39,342 nt of DNA from Escherichia phage HC12, in the sequence record OL362275.1; one strand, 5' to 3'. Numbering within the stretch: position 1 is the first letter of the stretch; the number at the start of each line of letters is the position of its first letter. The translations under genes and the position numbers were made by a program. This document shows positions 10,041-36,890 of this stretch, one piece after another. The notes under the pieces were generated by a model. That model was not told the origin of the DNA and did no database searches. It saw only the letters and a list, made by a program, of their open reading frames with translations.

Positions 10041-10531
10041 TGAGCAAGAAGTTTAAACTGTTAGTAGATGCGCATGGCTGGCCTAGTGGGACTATAGTTA
10101 CCAAGTGTGAGAATGACCCCGTACCAGATTCAAGAATGACCCTAGTTGAGTGCCAGATTCCAGGCGCATACAAACATGGGTCTAACGGCTGCAATACTCA
10201 GCCTGAGGGTATGTGGGGAGCATGGGTCCTTAATTGGAAACTTGAGGAAATCAAGCCGGAAGAGAAACTCACTGGTGTCCAAACCACTCAAGTCCTGCCA
10301 GCTTCGAGCGTACCGCCTGTGACTTTGAAGCGTGAAGTCCTGACCATCGACAAGATTGGTGTAGGCCAGACGTTCATCGTCCATGGAAAGCCTGAAGAAG
10401 TTTACGTGAAGATTAGCAACTCACACGTCTTCAACCATAAGCATCTCCAGATGCACACCACGGACGCACAACGCTTCACCCAGCACCTGAATCTGGTTGT
10501 CGTAGAATTGGTGGTGTACAATGGTAAGTAA
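10040..10531 (+). CDS. Hypothetical protein inserted between endonuclease I and lysozyme
   Basis: 163-aa ORF; ATG overlaps the gene 3 stop (TGATG). No counterpart at this position in T7. No motif recognised. Confidence 0.65.
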   Translation: MSKKFKLLVDAHGWPSGTIVTKCENDPVPDSRMTLVECQIPGAYKHGSNGCNTQPEGMWGAWVLNWKLEEIKPEEKLTGVQTTQVLPASSVPPVTLKREVLTIDKIGVGQTFIVHGKPEEVYVKISNSHVFNHKHLQMHTTDAQRFTQHLNLVVVELVVYNGK

Positions 10532-10979
10532 GGTACAGTTCAATCCACGGTCCCGGACCGACGCTATCTTCGTACACTGTTCGGCTACCAAGCCAGAGAT
10601 GGACATCGGGGTAGAGACCATCCGTATGTGGCACAAGCAGCAAGGCTGGCTGGACGTAGGCTACCACTTTATCATCAAGCGCGATGGCACTGTGGAAGAG
10701 GGACGCCCGGTCAATGTCGTAGGGTCACACGTTAAGGACTGGAACTCACGGTCTGTAGGCGTCTGCCTTGTAGGTGGAATTGACGCTAAGGGCAAGTTTG
10801 AAGCTAACTTCACTCCGGCCCAGATGAACTCCCTGCGCAACAAGCTGGCTGACCTGAAGGACTTGTATCCTCAGGCAGAAATCAAATCACATCATGACGT
10901 AGCACCAAAGGCGTGTCCAAGTTTCGACTTGCAACGCTGGCTGTCTACCAATGAACTGGTCACTTCCGACCGAGGCTAA
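10521..10979 (+). CDS. 3.5: N-acetylmuramoyl-L-alanine amidase (T7 lysozyme)
   Basis: 152 aa, near-colinear with T7 gp3.5: TDAIFVHCSATKP, GWLDVGYHFIIKRDGTVE, HHDVAPKACPSFDL, C-terminal ELVTSDRG. Confidence 0.95.
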   Translation: MVSKVQFNPRSRTDAIFVHCSATKPEMDIGVETIRMWHKQQGWLDVGYHFIIKRDGTVEEGRPVNVVGSHVKDWNSRSVGVCLVGGIDAKGKFEANFTPAQMNSLRNKLADLKDLYPQAEIKSHHDVAPKACPSFDLQRWLSTNELVTSDRG

Positions 10980-26893: not shown

Positions 26894-29176
26894 ATGGCTA
26901 GTAATATTGAATCAGCTCTGGCTAATCGGACTATGGGTCGTGGCAGAGCGCCTGGTAAAACTATCGCCGTCAACTATCAAGCAGCCAGCGTTCAGGCTCC
27001 AACTGGCGACTCCGGTCTGGCTCGTGCGTTAACCAACTTCGTTGAGTCTGGGACAGGATTGTACAAGCAGTTCAAGGACGATGAGAAGACCAGAGCTGAC
27101 GAGCGGTCTAACGAGATTATCCGTAAGCTGACACCCCAGCAAAGACGTGAGGCTATCCAGAACGGCACATTGCTGTATCAGGATGACCCTTACGCTATGG
27201 AAGCACTTCGAGTCAAGACTGGTCGTAATGCTGCCTTTGCTGTAGACGACGAGATTAACGTTAAGATTCAGAACGGTGAGTTCCGTACACGTCAGGACAT
27301 GGAAGAGTATCGTCACCAGCGACTTCAGGACGCCGCTAAGTCATATGCTGAAGAGGCGGGTATTAACCCTACAGACGAGTTCTTCCAGCGTGGGTTCAAC
27401 GATAACATCACAGACCGCAACATCGCTATCTATGGGTCTTTCAATAAGTATTTCAGCAAGCAGTCTGAAGAGACAGCAATGTTGAACACCCGTATTGAGA
27501 TGAACTCATTCCTGAACGATGGCGACCTGATGCGTTCACCTGAGTCTGGCAAGACCTTCATGGCCTACCTTCGGGATGGACTAACGACTGCTGCTATCCC
27601 CTCGGACCAGCGAGCGCGGGAGGTCATTGCCCAGACGGTCCGTGACGCAATCCAGAAGTCAGGCGGCTCAAACTTCCTACAGCAAGTACGAGGCGAGCGA
27701 ATCACCCTTAACGGCGTGGATGCTACAGTCGAAGAGATTGTAGGACCTGATGTCTTCAACGCTGCTATTGTTGAGGCACAAGGAACTGAGTACAAGCTGG
27801 TGGCTAAGTATCAGGAAGACTTAGCGTTAGGCGTGCAGTCTGCGATTCTTCAGGACGACCCAACCATCGGTCTGGCCCAGATTCAAAAACTCAAGGAGCA
27901 GAACAACCTGCTTCAACCGGGTGAAGAACTCACACCTCAGCGTCAGATGCTTATTAATGCCGAAGCCAGCTTACTGGAAGCGGTAAAGCGTAAGTCTGCT
28001 GAACAGGCGAAGGAGAACACGAAGTTAATCCAGACCCAGAACAAGCAACTGGTCATTGACCAAGTGTATCAGCGACGTCTGGCTGGAGACAACGTGTCCA
28101 CCAACTATGAGGACCTTCCGGTCTCTGAAGCCACAGGAGAGTTCAAGCGTTCAGACATGAACAACTATGCGTCTTCTAAGCTACAGCAGATTGACCAGAT
28201 GGACATCCCTGAGGCTGCTAAGGACGCACAGAAGGTTGCATTATTAAGAGCTGACACTAACAACGGTCCGTTCCGTAATGCCTTTCAAACGCTTACTCAG
28301 GACGCTGCTGGTGAGTGGCAAGCTGCGGTCATCCGTGGGCAGTACGACCCAGACAAGCTGCAACGCTTCGAATCTCTTCGTCGTGCCTACACTCAGGACC
28401 CTTCAAGTTTCGCTGCTCTGTATCCTGACCAAGCTCAGTTGTTCTCTACGTTCGACCAGATGGACAAGATGGGTCTGGACCCTCAGACGATGATTGAAGC
28501 TGATAAGCAAGCTGCAAGTCAAAGCCGTGAGATGCGCATGGAGTCAGACAAGGCGTGGCAGGAGTTGAAGAACGACTCTCGGAATAAGGACCTTTCGCGT
28601 CTTCCTACGTCTCTAGACTCAAGTGCTCGTAAGGTCTGGGACTCATGGTACTATCGTACAGGTAACGCTGACGCTGCAACGCAGCAGACTCAACGCTGGC
28701 TGAATGAGAACACCGTAACGTTCCAGTCTGAAGGTTCTGACGGTAAGTCCATCGGCATGGTGTCCAAACACCAGCTTATGGTCGGGGATAACCCAGAGTC
28801 GTGGCAGGTGGGTCGAGACATTATCGACACCGCTCGTAAGCAGCTCATTAAGGCCAACCCTTGGGTAGTGAACTCTCAGTTGTCCGTTGTTGAACAGAAC
28901 GGCTCTATCTTCCTCCAAGACGCTACGGGGACTATTCGTATTCGATACGATAAAGAACTTGTAGGTAAACTCTACCGCGAACAACAGCAGAAGGTACAAG
29001 ATGCCGCATATGCTCAGGCAGAACGTGACGCTAACAAGCGAGCGCGTATCGTCGGGACTAAAGCTGCTGGTGACAAACGTCGAGCTGACCGAGAGGCCAA
29101 CATCGAGAAGCGCGGTGGGATGTACAATGATGTCTCACTGGAGGGTATCGCAAACACCTTAATCGGTAAGGAGTAA
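26894..29176 (+). CDS. 15: Internal virion protein C
   Basis: 760-aa ORF between gp14 and gp16, size and position as T7 gp15. RBS GAGGAGG. Confidence 0.85.
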   Translation: MASNIESALANRTMGRGRAPGKTIAVNYQAASVQAPTGDSGLARALTNFVESGTGLYKQFKDDEKTRADERSNEIIRKLTPQQRREAIQNGTLLYQDDPYAMEALRVKTGRNAAFAVDDEINVKIQNGEFRTRQDMEEYRHQRLQDAAKSYAEEAGINPTDEFFQRGFNDNITDRNIAIYGSFNKYFSKQSEETAMLNTRIEMNSFLNDGDLMRSPESGKTFMAYLRDGLTTAAIPSDQRAREVIAQTVRDAIQKSGGSNFLQQVRGERITLNGVDATVEEIVGPDVFNAAIVEAQGTEYKLVAKYQEDLALGVQSAILQDDPTIGLAQIQKLKEQNNLLQPGEELTPQRQMLINAEASLLEAVKRKSAEQAKENTKLIQTQNKQLVIDQVYQRRLAGDNVSTNYEDLPVSEATGEFKRSDMNNYASSKLQQIDQMDIPEAAKDAQKVALLRADTNNGPFRNAFQTLTQDAAGEWQAAVIRGQYDPDKLQRFESLRRAYTQDPSSFAALYPDQAQLFSTFDQMDKMGLDPQTMIEADKQAASQSREMRMESDKAWQELKNDSRNKDLSRLPTSLDSSARKVWDSWYYRTGNADAATQQTQRWLNENTVTFQSEGSDGKSIGMVSKHQLMVGDNPESWQVGRDIIDTARKQLIKANPWVVNSQLSVVEQNGSIFLQDATGTIRIRYDKELVGKLYREQQQKVQDAAYAQAERDANKRARIVGTKAAGDKRRADREANIEKRGGMYNDVSLEGIANTLIGKE

Positions 29177-29181
29177 TAATA

Positions 29182-29631
29182 ATGAAGAACGGGACAGCCA
29201 GTGAGAGACTGGCAGAACTGTCAGTAGCTGAAGAGTCTGGCTGTATCCGATTCACAGGCCACTTAGACGGAGAAGGATACGGAAGGATAATGGTCAACAG
29301 GGTCAAATACAGAGCGCATAGACTTGCTTACGAGCTTGCTAACGGTCCTATACCCGATGGCTACGTTGTTCGCCATAAGTGCGACAACCCGTCCTGTATA
29401 AACCCAAGCCACCTTGAAGTCGGCACCCAAGCTGATAACATAAAGGATAAGGTGACTAGAGGTCGCCAAGCGTTAGGACGCTTCGTAGGATCGTCTAAGC
29501 TCACTGAGGAAAGTGTGCGTGATATAAGGTCCAGCGACCTAAAGGTTTCACTCTTGGCTGAACGCTATGGAGTGAGTACGGTTTCTATTAGAAATATCTT
29601 GAGGAGAAAGACATGGCGACACGTGGAGTAA
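29182..29631 (+). CDS. HNH homing endonuclease (free-standing), inserted between genes 15 and 16
   Basis: GYGRIMVNRVKYRAHRLAYELANGPIPDGYVVRHKCDNPSCINPSHLEVGTQADN is a classic HNH motif; C-terminal helix-turn-helix-like LAERYGVSTVSIRNILRRK. Overlaps the gene 16 start by 19 nt. Confidence 0.85.
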   Translation: MKNGTASERLAELSVAEESGCIRFTGHLDGEGYGRIMVNRVKYRAHRLAYELANGPIPDGYVVRHKCDNPSCINPSHLEVGTQADNIKDKVTRGRQALGRFVGSSKLTEESVRDIRSSDLKVSLLAERYGVSTVSIRNILRRKTWRHVE

Positions 29632-32600
29632 GGAACTCAAACCCCGGGAACCTCCGTAAGTCCAAAGACCAATGGGAAGGTGCTATAGGTGATGATGGCG
29701 AATTCGTTATCTTCGACAGTCCTGAATCTGGCGTCCGAGCCTTAGCGAAAAACCTTCAAAGCTACGGTCGCCAAGGTTATGACTCCATCGAGAAGATTAT
29801 CAACCGATGGGCACCTCCGAGCGAGAACGACACTAAGTCCTACATCGACTCAGTGGTGGCTGCGACTGGTATCCCTGCCACCCAGAGTCTCGACCTATCG
29901 GACCCTGACACCCTGTCTTCTCTGGCTCAAGCTATCAGCTTCCATGAGACAGGCTCCCGGTACGACCCTGAAGTCTATCAGAAGGGAGTCGCACGAGCAC
30001 TCAATGGCATTAGCCCAAAGACTCCACCAGTAAGCGCTAACGTATTTGACGCACTCACGGAAGGACTCAAGGCTAAACCTAAAGTAGCTCTGGGTGAGAA
30101 CCTTCCGACCGCTGCTGGTCTAAACATTGAGGGTCAAGCACCTGAATCTCCCAACGAATCGTTCGGTGAGATGTTCTATAAGTCTACTGGCGAGACCATG
30201 AAGGAACGAGAGGACCGCTCTACGTGGTTCGGTTTCGGTGAGGCTACAAAAGCTGAAGTGAAGAACTCTATGATCGGCGTGGCTATCCGCGCTGGTCAGA
30301 CCGAGGACTCACTGGATGTCATTGGCGATGTGTTCAACCCAACCCGATGGAACAACCATAAGTGGTCTCGTGAGGAGCTGGACCAGATTCGTAACGCTGG
30401 GGTTCTTCCTCAGTATTACGGAGTCATTACTGGTGGTTCTCCTCAGAACCTGACCGAGCTTATTAACTTGGCGCTTGAGAACCAGAAGTTGGATCAAGAG
30501 AAGGCCAAGGCTGGGACTGGTGCTCAGTTAGCCGCTGGTGTGATTGGCGCTGGTGTGGACCCTCTGACCTACGTCCCTATTGCTGGACAGGTTGGTAAGG
30601 GCGGTAAGCTGGTCAATAAGATGTTCACCGTGGCTGCTCAATCTGGAGCACTGGCTGGTGTGTCTGAGATGGCCCGTACCTCAGTGGCTGGTGGTGATGC
30701 TCATGTGGCTGAAGCTATCCTTGGTGGCGCTCTCTTCGGTGGTGGTATGACTGCTATCGCTGATGGACTAGGCAGAGCCTTAGGCCGAAACACTAATGAG
30801 TTTGCTGGTCCAGCTACCCGTCTGGAAGCTCGTGAGACAGCTCGCAACACTGATGGTCAGGACCTGTCTCGTCTACCTATTCAGGATGGTGAGCAGACAT
30901 TTAGTCATCAAGGAGTTAAGTTCGCTAACGTTCCAAACGAGCCGGGTAGTGTACGATTAGAAGATGGTTCAATCCTGATTGGTGAGAACCCTCTGAACCC
31001 TAAGACACGTAAGGTCTTTGACGAAGTGATTGAGCCTGAACGTGCCGCTGCGGGTGTGAACCTTGGTGGCCTGACTGAGATTGGCCTGAAGCTGCTTCGG
31101 TCTGAGAACCCTGAGATTCGTGGAGTAGCTGCTGACTTAGTGCGTTCACCGACTGGTATGCAGTCTGGGGCCTCAGGTAAAATCGGGACCACTGCGTCAG
31201 ACGTATTCGAGAGACTTCGTGCTGTGGACCATCGGTTCTACAACGACATCGACGAAGCGGTTACTGAGGCGCTCAAGGACCCATACTTCCAGACAGCATT
31301 CTGGCGAGACTCTGGCGCATTCCGTCAGGACATCTACCAGCGTGTGTCTATGGCTATTGAAGACGGAAGTGGGAACCTGAAGGCTGAACTGACTCCGGGA
31401 GAACTGAAAGTCTATGACCTGCTGAAGAACCAGTTTGACGCCAAGCGTGAGATGATGGAGAACCCGGCGATGTTTGGTCGTCCAGACGCTCAGTCTATCT
31501 TTCCGGGCAGCCGCTTCAAGGGAACCTACGTCCCGCATGTGTATAGCAACCAGATGAAGAAGCTGTACATCAAGGAGCTTGGGAGTCCAGAGGCGTTGCA
31601 GGAGGCCATCAAGAAGTCATGGTTGACCAGCTATGCGTCTCGACCTGAAGTCAAGAAACGCGTGGACGAGGCACTCTTAGAGGCTGACCCTACGTTGACT
31701 CCAGAAGGACTTGCGGCTGCGGTCGATAAGTACGCCAACGATAAGGCTTATGGTATCTCTCACACCGAGCAGTTCGAGCGTTCATCCGTAATGGAAGAGA
31801 ACATCAATGGTCTGGTAGGTCTGGAGAACAACAGCTTCCTTGAGGCTCGTAACCTGTTCGATAGCGATATGTCAATCGTCCTACCTAACGGTCAGACCTT
31901 CAGTGTCAACAACCTGCGTGAGTGGGACATGGACAAGATTGTCCCGGCCTACAACCGTCGAGTTAATGGCGATATTGCTATCATGGCTGGTACAGGCAAG
32001 ACCACGAAGGACATGAAGGACTTGGTTGAGACCCTGATGAACAAGGCTGGGGATGACGGTAAGTTGAAAGGTGAAGTATCTACCTTACGTGACACTTTGA
32101 AGATTCTAACTGGTCGTGCTCGACGTGATGGTGCTGATGATGCGGCCTTCGCTACCGTGATGCGCACAATGACAGACCTATCGTTCTTCGCTAAGAATGC
32201 CTACATGGGTGTTCAGAACTTAACGGAGATTGGTGGTATGCTGGCTCGTGGTAACGTTCGTGCAATGCTTCATGGAGTCCCAATTTTCCGTGACCTAGCC
32301 TTCCGTAACAAGAAGGTTGGGGCCTCAGAGATTAAGGACCTGCACAATGTTATCTTCGGTAAGGAACTGGATGACTCAATCCGTCCGTCTAAACAGGATG
32401 TCATTGACCGTCTGCGATCTTACAGTGACCTAGGTCGTGGTACAGCTACAGCTCTGGGGACTGCCAAGTATTACACTGGCGAACTTGCAGTACGCTCTCC
32501 GTTCACTAAAGTCCTCAACGGTACGACCAACTACCTGTTAGATGCTGGACGTCAGGGCTTCCTGTCTGACATCGTGGAGCATAGCCTGACTGGTAGTAAG

Positions 32601-33500
32601 CGTAAGTTCGATGACCGCTGGCTGAAGACCGCTGGTATCTCTGACGAGCAGTGGAAGGGCATTAAGTCCCTAATCCGTGAGTCAGTGACTCGTGGTCCAG
32701 ACGGGAAGTACACCATCAAGGATAAGAAGGCGTTCAGTCAGGACCCAAGGGCTATGGACCTCTGGCGTATGGGTGACACCATCGCTGATGAGACCCTGCT
32801 CCGTCCCCACAAGCTGAGCAACATGGACGCCAAGGCTTATGGTCCGATAGCGAAGACTGTCTTGCAGTTTAAGAACTTCGTTATCAAGTCTATCAACGGT
32901 CGAACCATGCGTACCTTCTACAATGCCACCAAGAACAACCGAGCTATGGACGCTGCGCTGTCAACGGTTATGTCTATGGGTCTGGCTGGAATGTACTACA
33001 TGGCTCAGGCGCACATAAAGGCTTACGCTATGCAGGACGGGCGTGACCAAGAGTATCTGAAGCAAGCCCTTAACCCAACAATGATTGGCTATGCGGCGCT
33101 GTCCCGTAGCTCCCACTTAGGTGGTCCTCTTGGGGTCGCCAACATTCTGGGTGGAATCGCTGGGTATGAGGACACTAAGATGCTCCGCTCGTCAATCCTT
33201 CCGCGCTCACCTACCGAGAAGACGGAGAAGCCAATCGCCTTTGGTGCTGCTTCCAGTGGTCCGGTAATGAATGTGGTCGGCAACTTCCTTGAGCAGGTCC
33301 CGGCTTTCGGCTATGCTGCTAACGTTGGTGCTACGGCTTACAACTTGGCGGGATACCTCAAGGCTGATACCCGTGTCAACGAGCGAGACTACATGACCGG
33401 GATGTATAACACGTTCCGTGAACTTGTACCGAATGACCCGATTACCCAGAAGTTGCTGCTTGGAACGTTTGAGGAGCAGGGCATCCACATCAAGGACTAA
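29613..33500 (+). CDS. 16: Internal virion protein D (ejection protein), N-terminal domain unlike the T7 transglycosylase domain
   Basis: 1295 aa. From about residue 230 colinear with T7 gp16 (TRWN..W..EEL..IRN, SPTGMQSGASGK, YGISHTEQFE, NSFLEARNLFDSD, FFAKNAYMG, DPTMIGYAALSRSS, KELVPNDP). N-terminal 130 aa (NSNPGNLRK...RWAPPSENDT) is different. Confidence 0.93.
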   Translation: MATRGVRNSNPGNLRKSKDQWEGAIGDDGEFVIFDSPESGVRALAKNLQSYGRQGYDSIEKIINRWAPPSENDTKSYIDSVVAATGIPATQSLDLSDPDTLSSLAQAISFHETGSRYDPEVYQKGVARALNGISPKTPPVSANVFDALTEGLKAKPKVALGENLPTAAGLNIEGQAPESPNESFGEMFYKSTGETMKEREDRSTWFGFGEATKAEVKNSMIGVAIRAGQTEDSLDVIGDVFNPTRWNNHKWSREELDQIRNAGVLPQYYGVITGGSPQNLTELINLALENQKLDQEKAKAGTGAQLAAGVIGAGVDPLTYVPIAGQVGKGGKLVNKMFTVAAQSGALAGVSEMARTSVAGGDAHVAEAILGGALFGGGMTAIADGLGRALGRNTNEFAGPATRLEARETARNTDGQDLSRLPIQDGEQTFSHQGVKFANVPNEPGSVRLEDGSILIGENPLNPKTRKVFDEVIEPERAAAGVNLGGLTEIGLKLLRSENPEIRGVAADLVRSPTGMQSGASGKIGTTASDVFERLRAVDHRFYNDIDEAVTEALKDPYFQTAFWRDSGAFRQDIYQRVSMAIEDGSGNLKAELTPGELKVYDLLKNQFDAKREMMENPAMFGRPDAQSIFPGSRFKGTYVPHVYSNQMKKLYIKELGSPEALQEAIKKSWLTSYASRPEVKKRVDEALLEADPTLTPEGLAAAVDKYANDKAYGISHTEQFERSSVMEENINGLVGLENNSFLEARNLFDSDMSIVLPNGQTFSVNNLREWDMDKIVPAYNRRVNGDIAIMAGTGKTTKDMKDLVETLMNKAGDDGKLKGEVSTLRDTLKILTGRARRDGADDAAFATVMRTMTDLSFFAKNAYMGVQNLTEIGGMLARGNVRAMLHGVPIFRDLAFRNKKVGASEIKDLHNVIFGKELDDSIRPSKQDVIDRLRSYSDLGRGTATALGTAKYYTGELAVRSPFTKVLNGTTNYLLDAGRQGFLSDIVEHSLTGSKRKFDDRWLKTAGISDEQWKGIKSLIRESVTRGPDGKYTIKDKKAFSQDPRAMDLWRMGDTIADETLLRPHKLSNMDAKAYGPIAKTVLQFKNFVIKSINGRTMRTFYNATKNNRAMDAALSTVMSMGLAGMYYMAQAHIKAYAMQDGRDQEYLKQALNPTMIGYAALSRSSHLGGPLGVANILGGIAGYEDTKMLRSSILPRSPTEKTEKPIAFGAASSGPVMNVVGNFLEQVPAFGYAANVGATAYNLAGYLKADTRVNERDYMTGMYNTFRELVPNDPITQKLLLGTFEEQGIHIKD

Positions 33501-35889: not shown

Positions 35890-36084
35890 ATGATTGAGTT
35901 AGACTTCAAGAATGAGGTCCTCAAAGCCTCGCCTATCGTCGGGACCGCTGCGGCTGATGGTGCCAGTCGGTTCTTCTTTGGGCTAACGCTCAACGAATGG
36001 TTCTACGTCGCTGCTATCGCGTACACCGTGGTGCAGATTGGCGTCCTAATTTACAAGACGATTAAGAGCGGAGGTAAGACATGA
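35890..36084 (+). CDS. 17.5: Holin (class II)
   Basis: 64 aa, near-colinear with T7 gp17.5: LDFKNEVLKASPIVGTAAADGASRFFFGLTLNEWFYVAAIAYTVVQIG. Confidence 0.9.
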   Translation: MIELDFKNEVLKASPIVGTAAADGASRFFFGLTLNEWFYVAAIAYTVVQIGVLIYKTIKSGGKT

Positions 36085-36440: not shown

Positions 36441-36890
36441 ATGCTCGAATTTTTAAAGAGAGCGGCTCCGTGGTTACTTGCAGCAGTGATGTTTGCTGGT
36501 GGCTACCACACCGCTAACAATAAGTGGGAGGCTAAGGTCAATGCAGAATACACCTCGAATCTTAAGGCATCGGAAGATACAAGGCTTGCTGTCCAAGCTG
36601 AAGTCAACAAAGTGTCCAAACGGTTTCAGGACGAAATGTCCTCGCTGGAAGGCAGCACTGATAGGATTATTGCTGACCTTCAGTCTGACAATAAGCGGTT
36701 GCGCATCCGAGTCAAACCAACGAGTGGAACCACGCAAAGTGACGGTCGATGCTTCATTGATGGTTACGCCGAACTTGACGAACGAGATGCTAAACGTCTT
36801 ATCGCCATCGGAGTGAAAGGAGACAAGTGGATTAAGGCCCTTCAAGACACTGTGAGAGCCTTACAGCAAGAGAAGGAGGTGACGCATTGA
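36441..36890 (+). CDS. 18.5: Rz-like i-spanin
   Basis: 149 aa, N-terminal TM segment; MLEFL..., [53 protein letters not shown] align with T7 gp18.5. Confidence 0.9.
36541..36816 (+). CDS. 18.7: Rz1-like o-spanin lipoprotein embedded in the +1 frame of Rz
   Basis: Embedded +1-frame ORF with hydrophobic stretch [13 protein letters not shown] followed by lipobox ISGC. ATG 36541 has a GGAGG RBS but gives a 53-residue pre-Cys leader; true start uncertain. Confidence 0.5.
   Translation: MQNTPRILRHRKIQGLLSKLKSTKCPNGFRTKCPRWKAALIGLLLTFSLTISGCASESNQRVEPRKVTVDASLMVTPNLTNEMLNVLSPSE

Follow-up and report, generated by a model that had tools for sequence, protein, structure and literature searches.

The internal virion protein D (gp16) of Escherichia phage HC12, encoded in the 39,342-nucleotide stretch of record OL362275.1 that was analysed here as a whole (the window), starts with a domain of a different enzyme family from that of its T7 counterpart. 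On sequence, predicted fold and catalytic residues, residues 1–131 are assigned with confidence to the family of the Enc34 endolysin catalytic domain (CDD PHA02564). They lie exactly in the slot that in T7 gp16 is taken by the "wing", a soluble lytic transglycosylase (SLT) domain. The domain is very likely an Enc34-type glycosidase that acts as an entry lysin, with Glu112 as the putative acid and Tyr77 and Trp66 as putative substrate-positioning residues. The swap is real, but the enzyme family is known and already characterised, and the trait is common to the whole genus.

The phage is a Kayfunavirus (K1F-like, T7 family) and the open reading frame in question is its gp16 (Table 1). The gene order 13-14-15-16-17 of T7-like genomes is found here, with members of the Pfam Gp13 and gp14 families and a gp15 homologue (98.9% identical to K1F gp15 and 45.8% to T7 gp15) upstream, and a tail spike gene with a T7 tail-fibre N-domain downstream. 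Genes 15 and 16 are separated by an inserted HNH gene; in HNH-less relatives the Shine-Dalgarno sequence of gene 16 is AAGGAG, placed at the end of gene 15. The gene 16 protein and Gp29 of E. coli phage E1004 are near-identical over their full length; Gp29 is one of the chains in the solved E1004 core structure ("core proteins of bacteriophage E1004", PDB 9VVP). The gp16 proteins of K1F and of the Citrobacter phages SH3 and CR44b, together with Gp29, are the same protein as that of the window (86–99% identical in the domain and ~96% in the body), with allelic differences only. In the related phage B1, internal virion protein D was detected by MS/MS.

Table 1. Gene 16, its parts and its neighbours in the window
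Feature	Position	Strand	Basis
Gene 15 homologue (internal virion protein C, periplasmic tunnel; gp16 partner)	26894..29176	+	ORF
Gene 16 ribosome-binding site GAGGAG	29601..29606	+	Read in the sequence; overlaps the HNH gene upstream, at its 3' end
Gene 16 homologue (internal virion protein D, ejectosome component), 1295 aa	29613..33500	+	ORF, ATG at 29613
Enc34-type (PHA02564-family) peptidoglycan glycosidase domain (predicted), residues 1–131, in the slot of the T7 SLT "wing"	29613..30005	+	
Trp66 codon TGG (Enc34 Trp79, substrate-positioning aromatic)	29808..29810	+	Alignment to 7q47
Tyr77 codon TAC (Enc34 Tyr95)	29841..29843	+	Alignment to 7q47
Glu112 codon GAG (proposed catalytic Glu131 of Enc34; motif HE[TN]G)	29946..29948	+	Alignment to 7q47
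G-I-S-P-K junction motif, residues 132–136	30006..30020	+	Alignment of the window, MmP1 and T7 proteins
Extended linker, residues ~132–206 (T7 gp16 157–228)	30006..30230	+	BLASTP against T7; ~30–35% identity
Conserved gp16 body (ejectosome inner-membrane and cytoplasmic part)	30231..33500	+	Each segment 51–61% identical to T7 gp16; single colinear HMMER stretch

Behind the N-terminus the protein is colinear with T7 gp16, as the initial annotation had stated. In a phmmer search of PDB chains, T7 gp16 (7eyb_I, 6yt5_G) was aligned as a single stretch (query 125–1294 with T7 152–1314, 1304 bits), and the identity over residues 132–1295 is 54%; the homology of the body to an internal virion protein D of the T7 gp16 type extends colinearly over ~1150 residues. 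The T7 protein (PDB 7EYB, 6YT5, 7K5C) has the same gene position and length class, and both proteins begin with a muralytic-type domain, which is followed by a gp15-binding linker. In T7, residues 157–228 form the "molecular tape" that binds gp15 (PMC8954989), and residues ~132–206 of the window protein would, judging from homology, be its equivalent. Four residues at the start of this linker (G132, I133, P135 and K136) are invariant in the gp16 proteins of the window, Morganella phage MmP1 and T7, and since residues 132–136 are the first ones common to the SLT-type and Enc34-type proteins, they likely mark the module boundary.

The peptide on which the initial annotation had based its case for a foreign N-terminus, MATRGVRNSNPGNLRK...IINRWAPPSENDTKSY, is present in the open reading frame, and the interval 29613–30020 corresponds to codons 1–136. 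Its claim that this part is unrelated to the T7 transglycosylase domain was borne out. In T7 gp16, a GH23 SLT lytic transglycosylase whose catalytic residue is Glu37 spans residues 1–156, and residues 15–127 match Pfam SLT (PF01464) at 3e-31. When the first 240 residues of the window protein were compared by BLASTP with the first 268 of T7 gp16, nothing significant was seen ahead of residue 125. Residues 1–140 hit no Pfam or NCBIfam model, PF01464 included, even at E ≤ 1, scans of the whole protein gave no match either, and hhalign of a 29-sequence profile of the domain against the T7 N-terminus returned a probability of 0.1%. The window gp16 has no N-terminal SLT motif with a counterpart of Glu37, and the domain shows neither the GH23/SLT sequence profile nor the GH23 fold in sequence order. 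The N-terminal domain is therefore no SLT of the T7 type; it is unrelated to the T7 wing in sequence, ~25 residues shorter and probably hydrolytic.

Residues 3–122 matched residues 7–139 of 7q47_A, the Enc34 catalytic domain, at E = 1e-13 (phmmer), and a match to PHROG 873 ("endolysin") was found at 1.2e-51. The fold predicted for the domain is the all-helical core of 7Q47; according to the model, the domain is small, all-alpha and remotely lysozyme-like. In the Enc34 report (PMC8943055), relative to which the 7q47 chain numbering is shifted by +1, Trp79 and Tyr95 are described as aromatics of the groove and Glu131 as the proposed catalytic residue, a role assigned through superposition. The counterpart of this Glu in the window, Glu112, lies within an H-E-x-G motif in the helix after the equivalent of alpha4. 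It is invariant, as is Tyr77, among 29 homologues and in K1F, SH3, HC13, EPr2 and MmP1 (six gp16 proteins in all for Glu112), and the position of Trp66 is occupied by W, Y or F among the 29. Codons 1–131 are under strong purifying selection (dN/dS 0.03–0.14, four Kayfunaviruses). The suggestion made earlier, that a different wall module had been placed in the T7 SLT slot, is thus upheld: the module is identified by its sequence, its catalytic residues and the fold predicted for it, and its wall-degrading character follows from family homology.

A strongly diverged T7-type SLT, i.e., vertical descent and sequence drift without any exchange of modules, would be another way to explain such an N-terminus. 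The Enc34 authors do propose a very remote common origin with the lysozyme-fold enzymes of GH73 and GH23 (including SLT), with the Glu in the same spatial position, and many GenBank records carry the label "peptidoglycan lytic exotransglycosylase". The labels, however, look like annotation transfer from T7, and in the same report the Glu-bearing helix is permuted in sequence order relative to GH23 (PMC8943055), so that the domain is not a diverged T7-type SLT, yet lies inside the broad lysozyme-like superfold. Moreover, with the remainder of gp16 as similar to T7 as it is, drift beyond detection confined to 130 residues is implausible, and the type of N-terminus is incongruent with the tree of the gp16 body and gp15 (see below). 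Together with the Pfam and hhalign results, this brings the diverged-SLT explanation close to refuted, and it is regarded as extremely improbable.

Peptidoglycan degradation has been demonstrated for members of the Enc34-type family (PMC8943055, PMC7143992). The Enc34 domain (ORF39deltaC) lyses E. coli, P. aeruginosa and Hafnia cells with a permeabilised outer membrane (PMC8943055), and M4Lys of Salmonella phage BSPM4 (as M4LysdeltaTMD) degraded purified peptidoglycan and removed GlcNAc from muropeptides. The characterised members are probably N-acetylglucosaminidases, a bond specificity that rests on one LC-MS study, which suggested endopeptidase activity too. For the window domain itself, the enzymatic activity, the bond that it cuts and its use at entry are inferred; a search of the literature on K1F and Kayfunavirus gp16 found neither enzymatic or genetic work on any such gp16 nor an explicit description of the different N-terminus. 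A catalytically inert domain that anchors gp16 to peptidoglycan, or is purely a structural "wing" of the gp15–gp16 tunnel or capsid core, would find a parallel in T7, where the N-terminal domain is also structural (it forms the tunnel wings) and standard conditions do not require its catalysis (PMC8954989); Enc34 crystals soaked with sugars had no ligand bound (PMC8943055). Such an inert domain is nonetheless unlikely, given that the Glu and Tyr are invariant and the Trp position is aromatic in standalone endolysins and gp16 fusions alike, that activity is seen in standalone relatives which share these residues, and that the selection on the domain is strongly purifying.

The closest characterised relatives, ORF39 of Enc34 (7Q47; PHA02564) and M4Lys, are lysis endolysins of ~230–260 residues that come from a lysis cassette and have a two-helix membrane domain at the C-terminus, whereas the window domain, ~31–36% identical to them, is the N-terminus of a 1295-residue ejected core protein, misses two short loop insertions and has no membrane segment. 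This kinship, and the many homologues that are short proteins with TM-like segments, could be taken to mean that unassembled gp16 releases the domain late in infection, for use as a second endolysin and not at entry. Against this stand its fusion to a 1164-residue ejectosome body, the absence of any signal or TM segment upstream of it in the gene 16 protein, and the packaging of gp16 as a core protein in the near-identical E1004, as well as the fact that it occupies the slot of the T7 entry lysin (PMC8954989). The phage also has a complete T7-type lysis set elsewhere in its genome (Amidase_2, 10521..10979; a T7-type holin, 35890..36084; an Rz-like protein as spanin, 36441..36890). Late release as an endolysin is therefore most improbable, and with amidase, holin and spanin of its own in the phage, the muralytic-type domain on gp16 is most likely a virion-borne entry lysin of the ejectosome.

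An entry lysin of this kind would work as follows. The gp16 protein would be packaged into the capsid core and, at infection, would leave through the tail once gp14 and gp15 had been ejected. The N-terminal domain, which a conserved G-I-S/T-P-K motif connects with the gp15-binding linker and the gp16 body, would refold in the periplasm and cut glycan strands locally, and this local cutting would let the gp15–gp16 tunnel pass through the murein layer. By homology with M4Lys, Enc34 and GH73, it would probably act as a hydrolytic N-acetylglucosaminidase and not as a lytic transglycosylase. In T7, the lytic transglycosylase wings (residues 1–156) are needed when the murein is highly cross-linked and their activity is dispensable in standard conditions (PMC8954989), so that an entry phenotype may be subtle.

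The Enc34-type gp16 is a genus-wide trait, found in about 220 phage records that include K1F and E1004 Gp29. Outside the genus, the gp16 of Morganella phage MmP1 and of Minipunavirus also has an Enc34-type N-terminus on a T7-like gp16, with the Tyr and Glu kept and the Trp replaced by Tyr; the MmP1 domain is only 44% identical to that of the window. In trees of the gp16 body and of gp15 (10 taxa, with gh-1 assumed as the root), MmP1 groups with SLT-type phages and not with Kayfunavirus (100% bootstrap), which points to separate exchange events. The incongruence between the N-terminal type and these trees shows that the module exchanges are real, and the trees require at least two exchanges between the SLT and Enc34 types in Studiervirinae, in which the module may have been swapped in here or out elsewhere. 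Fusions of this domain to further virion proteins are seen in head, tape-measure and injection-protein PHROGs, in epsilon15, D3112 and D6, and in long fusion proteins. In SP6, K1E, K1-5 and the phiKMV-like phages, a lysozyme domain is carried by the gp15 homologue, i.e., the module has moved to another ejection protein, whereas in the window the module has stayed in place and belongs to another enzyme family.

The window and Providencia phage EPr2 both have an HNH gene directly upstream of gene 16 and a distinct allele over its first ~50 codons. The upstream HNH homing endonuclease was considered as the cause of this divergent 5' allele, but the pattern is not clean: the HNH-less HC13 has the window-type allele over the first ~170 nt, and the HNH-less SH3 and K1F have the other.

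An adaptive origin of the exchange, as opposed to a neutral one, can be envisaged if a hydrolytic domain of the N-acetylglucosaminidase type lets the ejectosome cross murein that resists a T7-type gp16; such an origin is unlikely. Lytic transglycosylases require a free C6-OH on MurNAc; the murein of Proteeae is O-acetylated, and O-acetylation blocks these enzymes. Candidates for resistant murein would be such O-acetylated murein or that of hosts with periplasmic inhibitors of lysozyme or lytic transglycosylase. A hint in this direction is that both lineages with an Enc34-type gp16 include phages of Providencia or Morganella (EPr2 and the Minipunavirus group), but the hosts of Kayfunavirus are mostly E. 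coli, Salmonella, Citrobacter and Enterobacter, and no Enc34-type domain was found within the 16 kb structural-gene region scanned in the SP6-like Proteus phage PM85.

The finding is sound and of low novelty, and leaves the general picture of mosaic ejection proteins unchanged, in which the ejectosome needs one peptidoglycan-cutting module that is mosaically exchanged (PMC8954989; bioRxiv 10.64898/2026.05.18.726046). It does correct a common annotation: many gp16 records of Kayfunavirus and Minipunavirus say lytic transglycosylase, and at least one paper, that on Morganella phage MP2, names gp16 a lytic transglycosylase or credits it with an SLT motif (PMC5384007), whereas sequence and predicted fold point to an Enc34-type glycosidase. 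The family is not covered by Pfam and NCBIfam, so automatic pipelines miss the domain. With about 19,500 clusters at 50% identity, the family to which the Enc34-type domain belongs is very large, and it serves both as endolysin and as virion lysin. T7 and the window phage may be seen as a natural pair of ejectosomes differing essentially in the muralytic module alone, which would suit a test of the contribution of the entry lysin, and of its bond chemistry, to infection.

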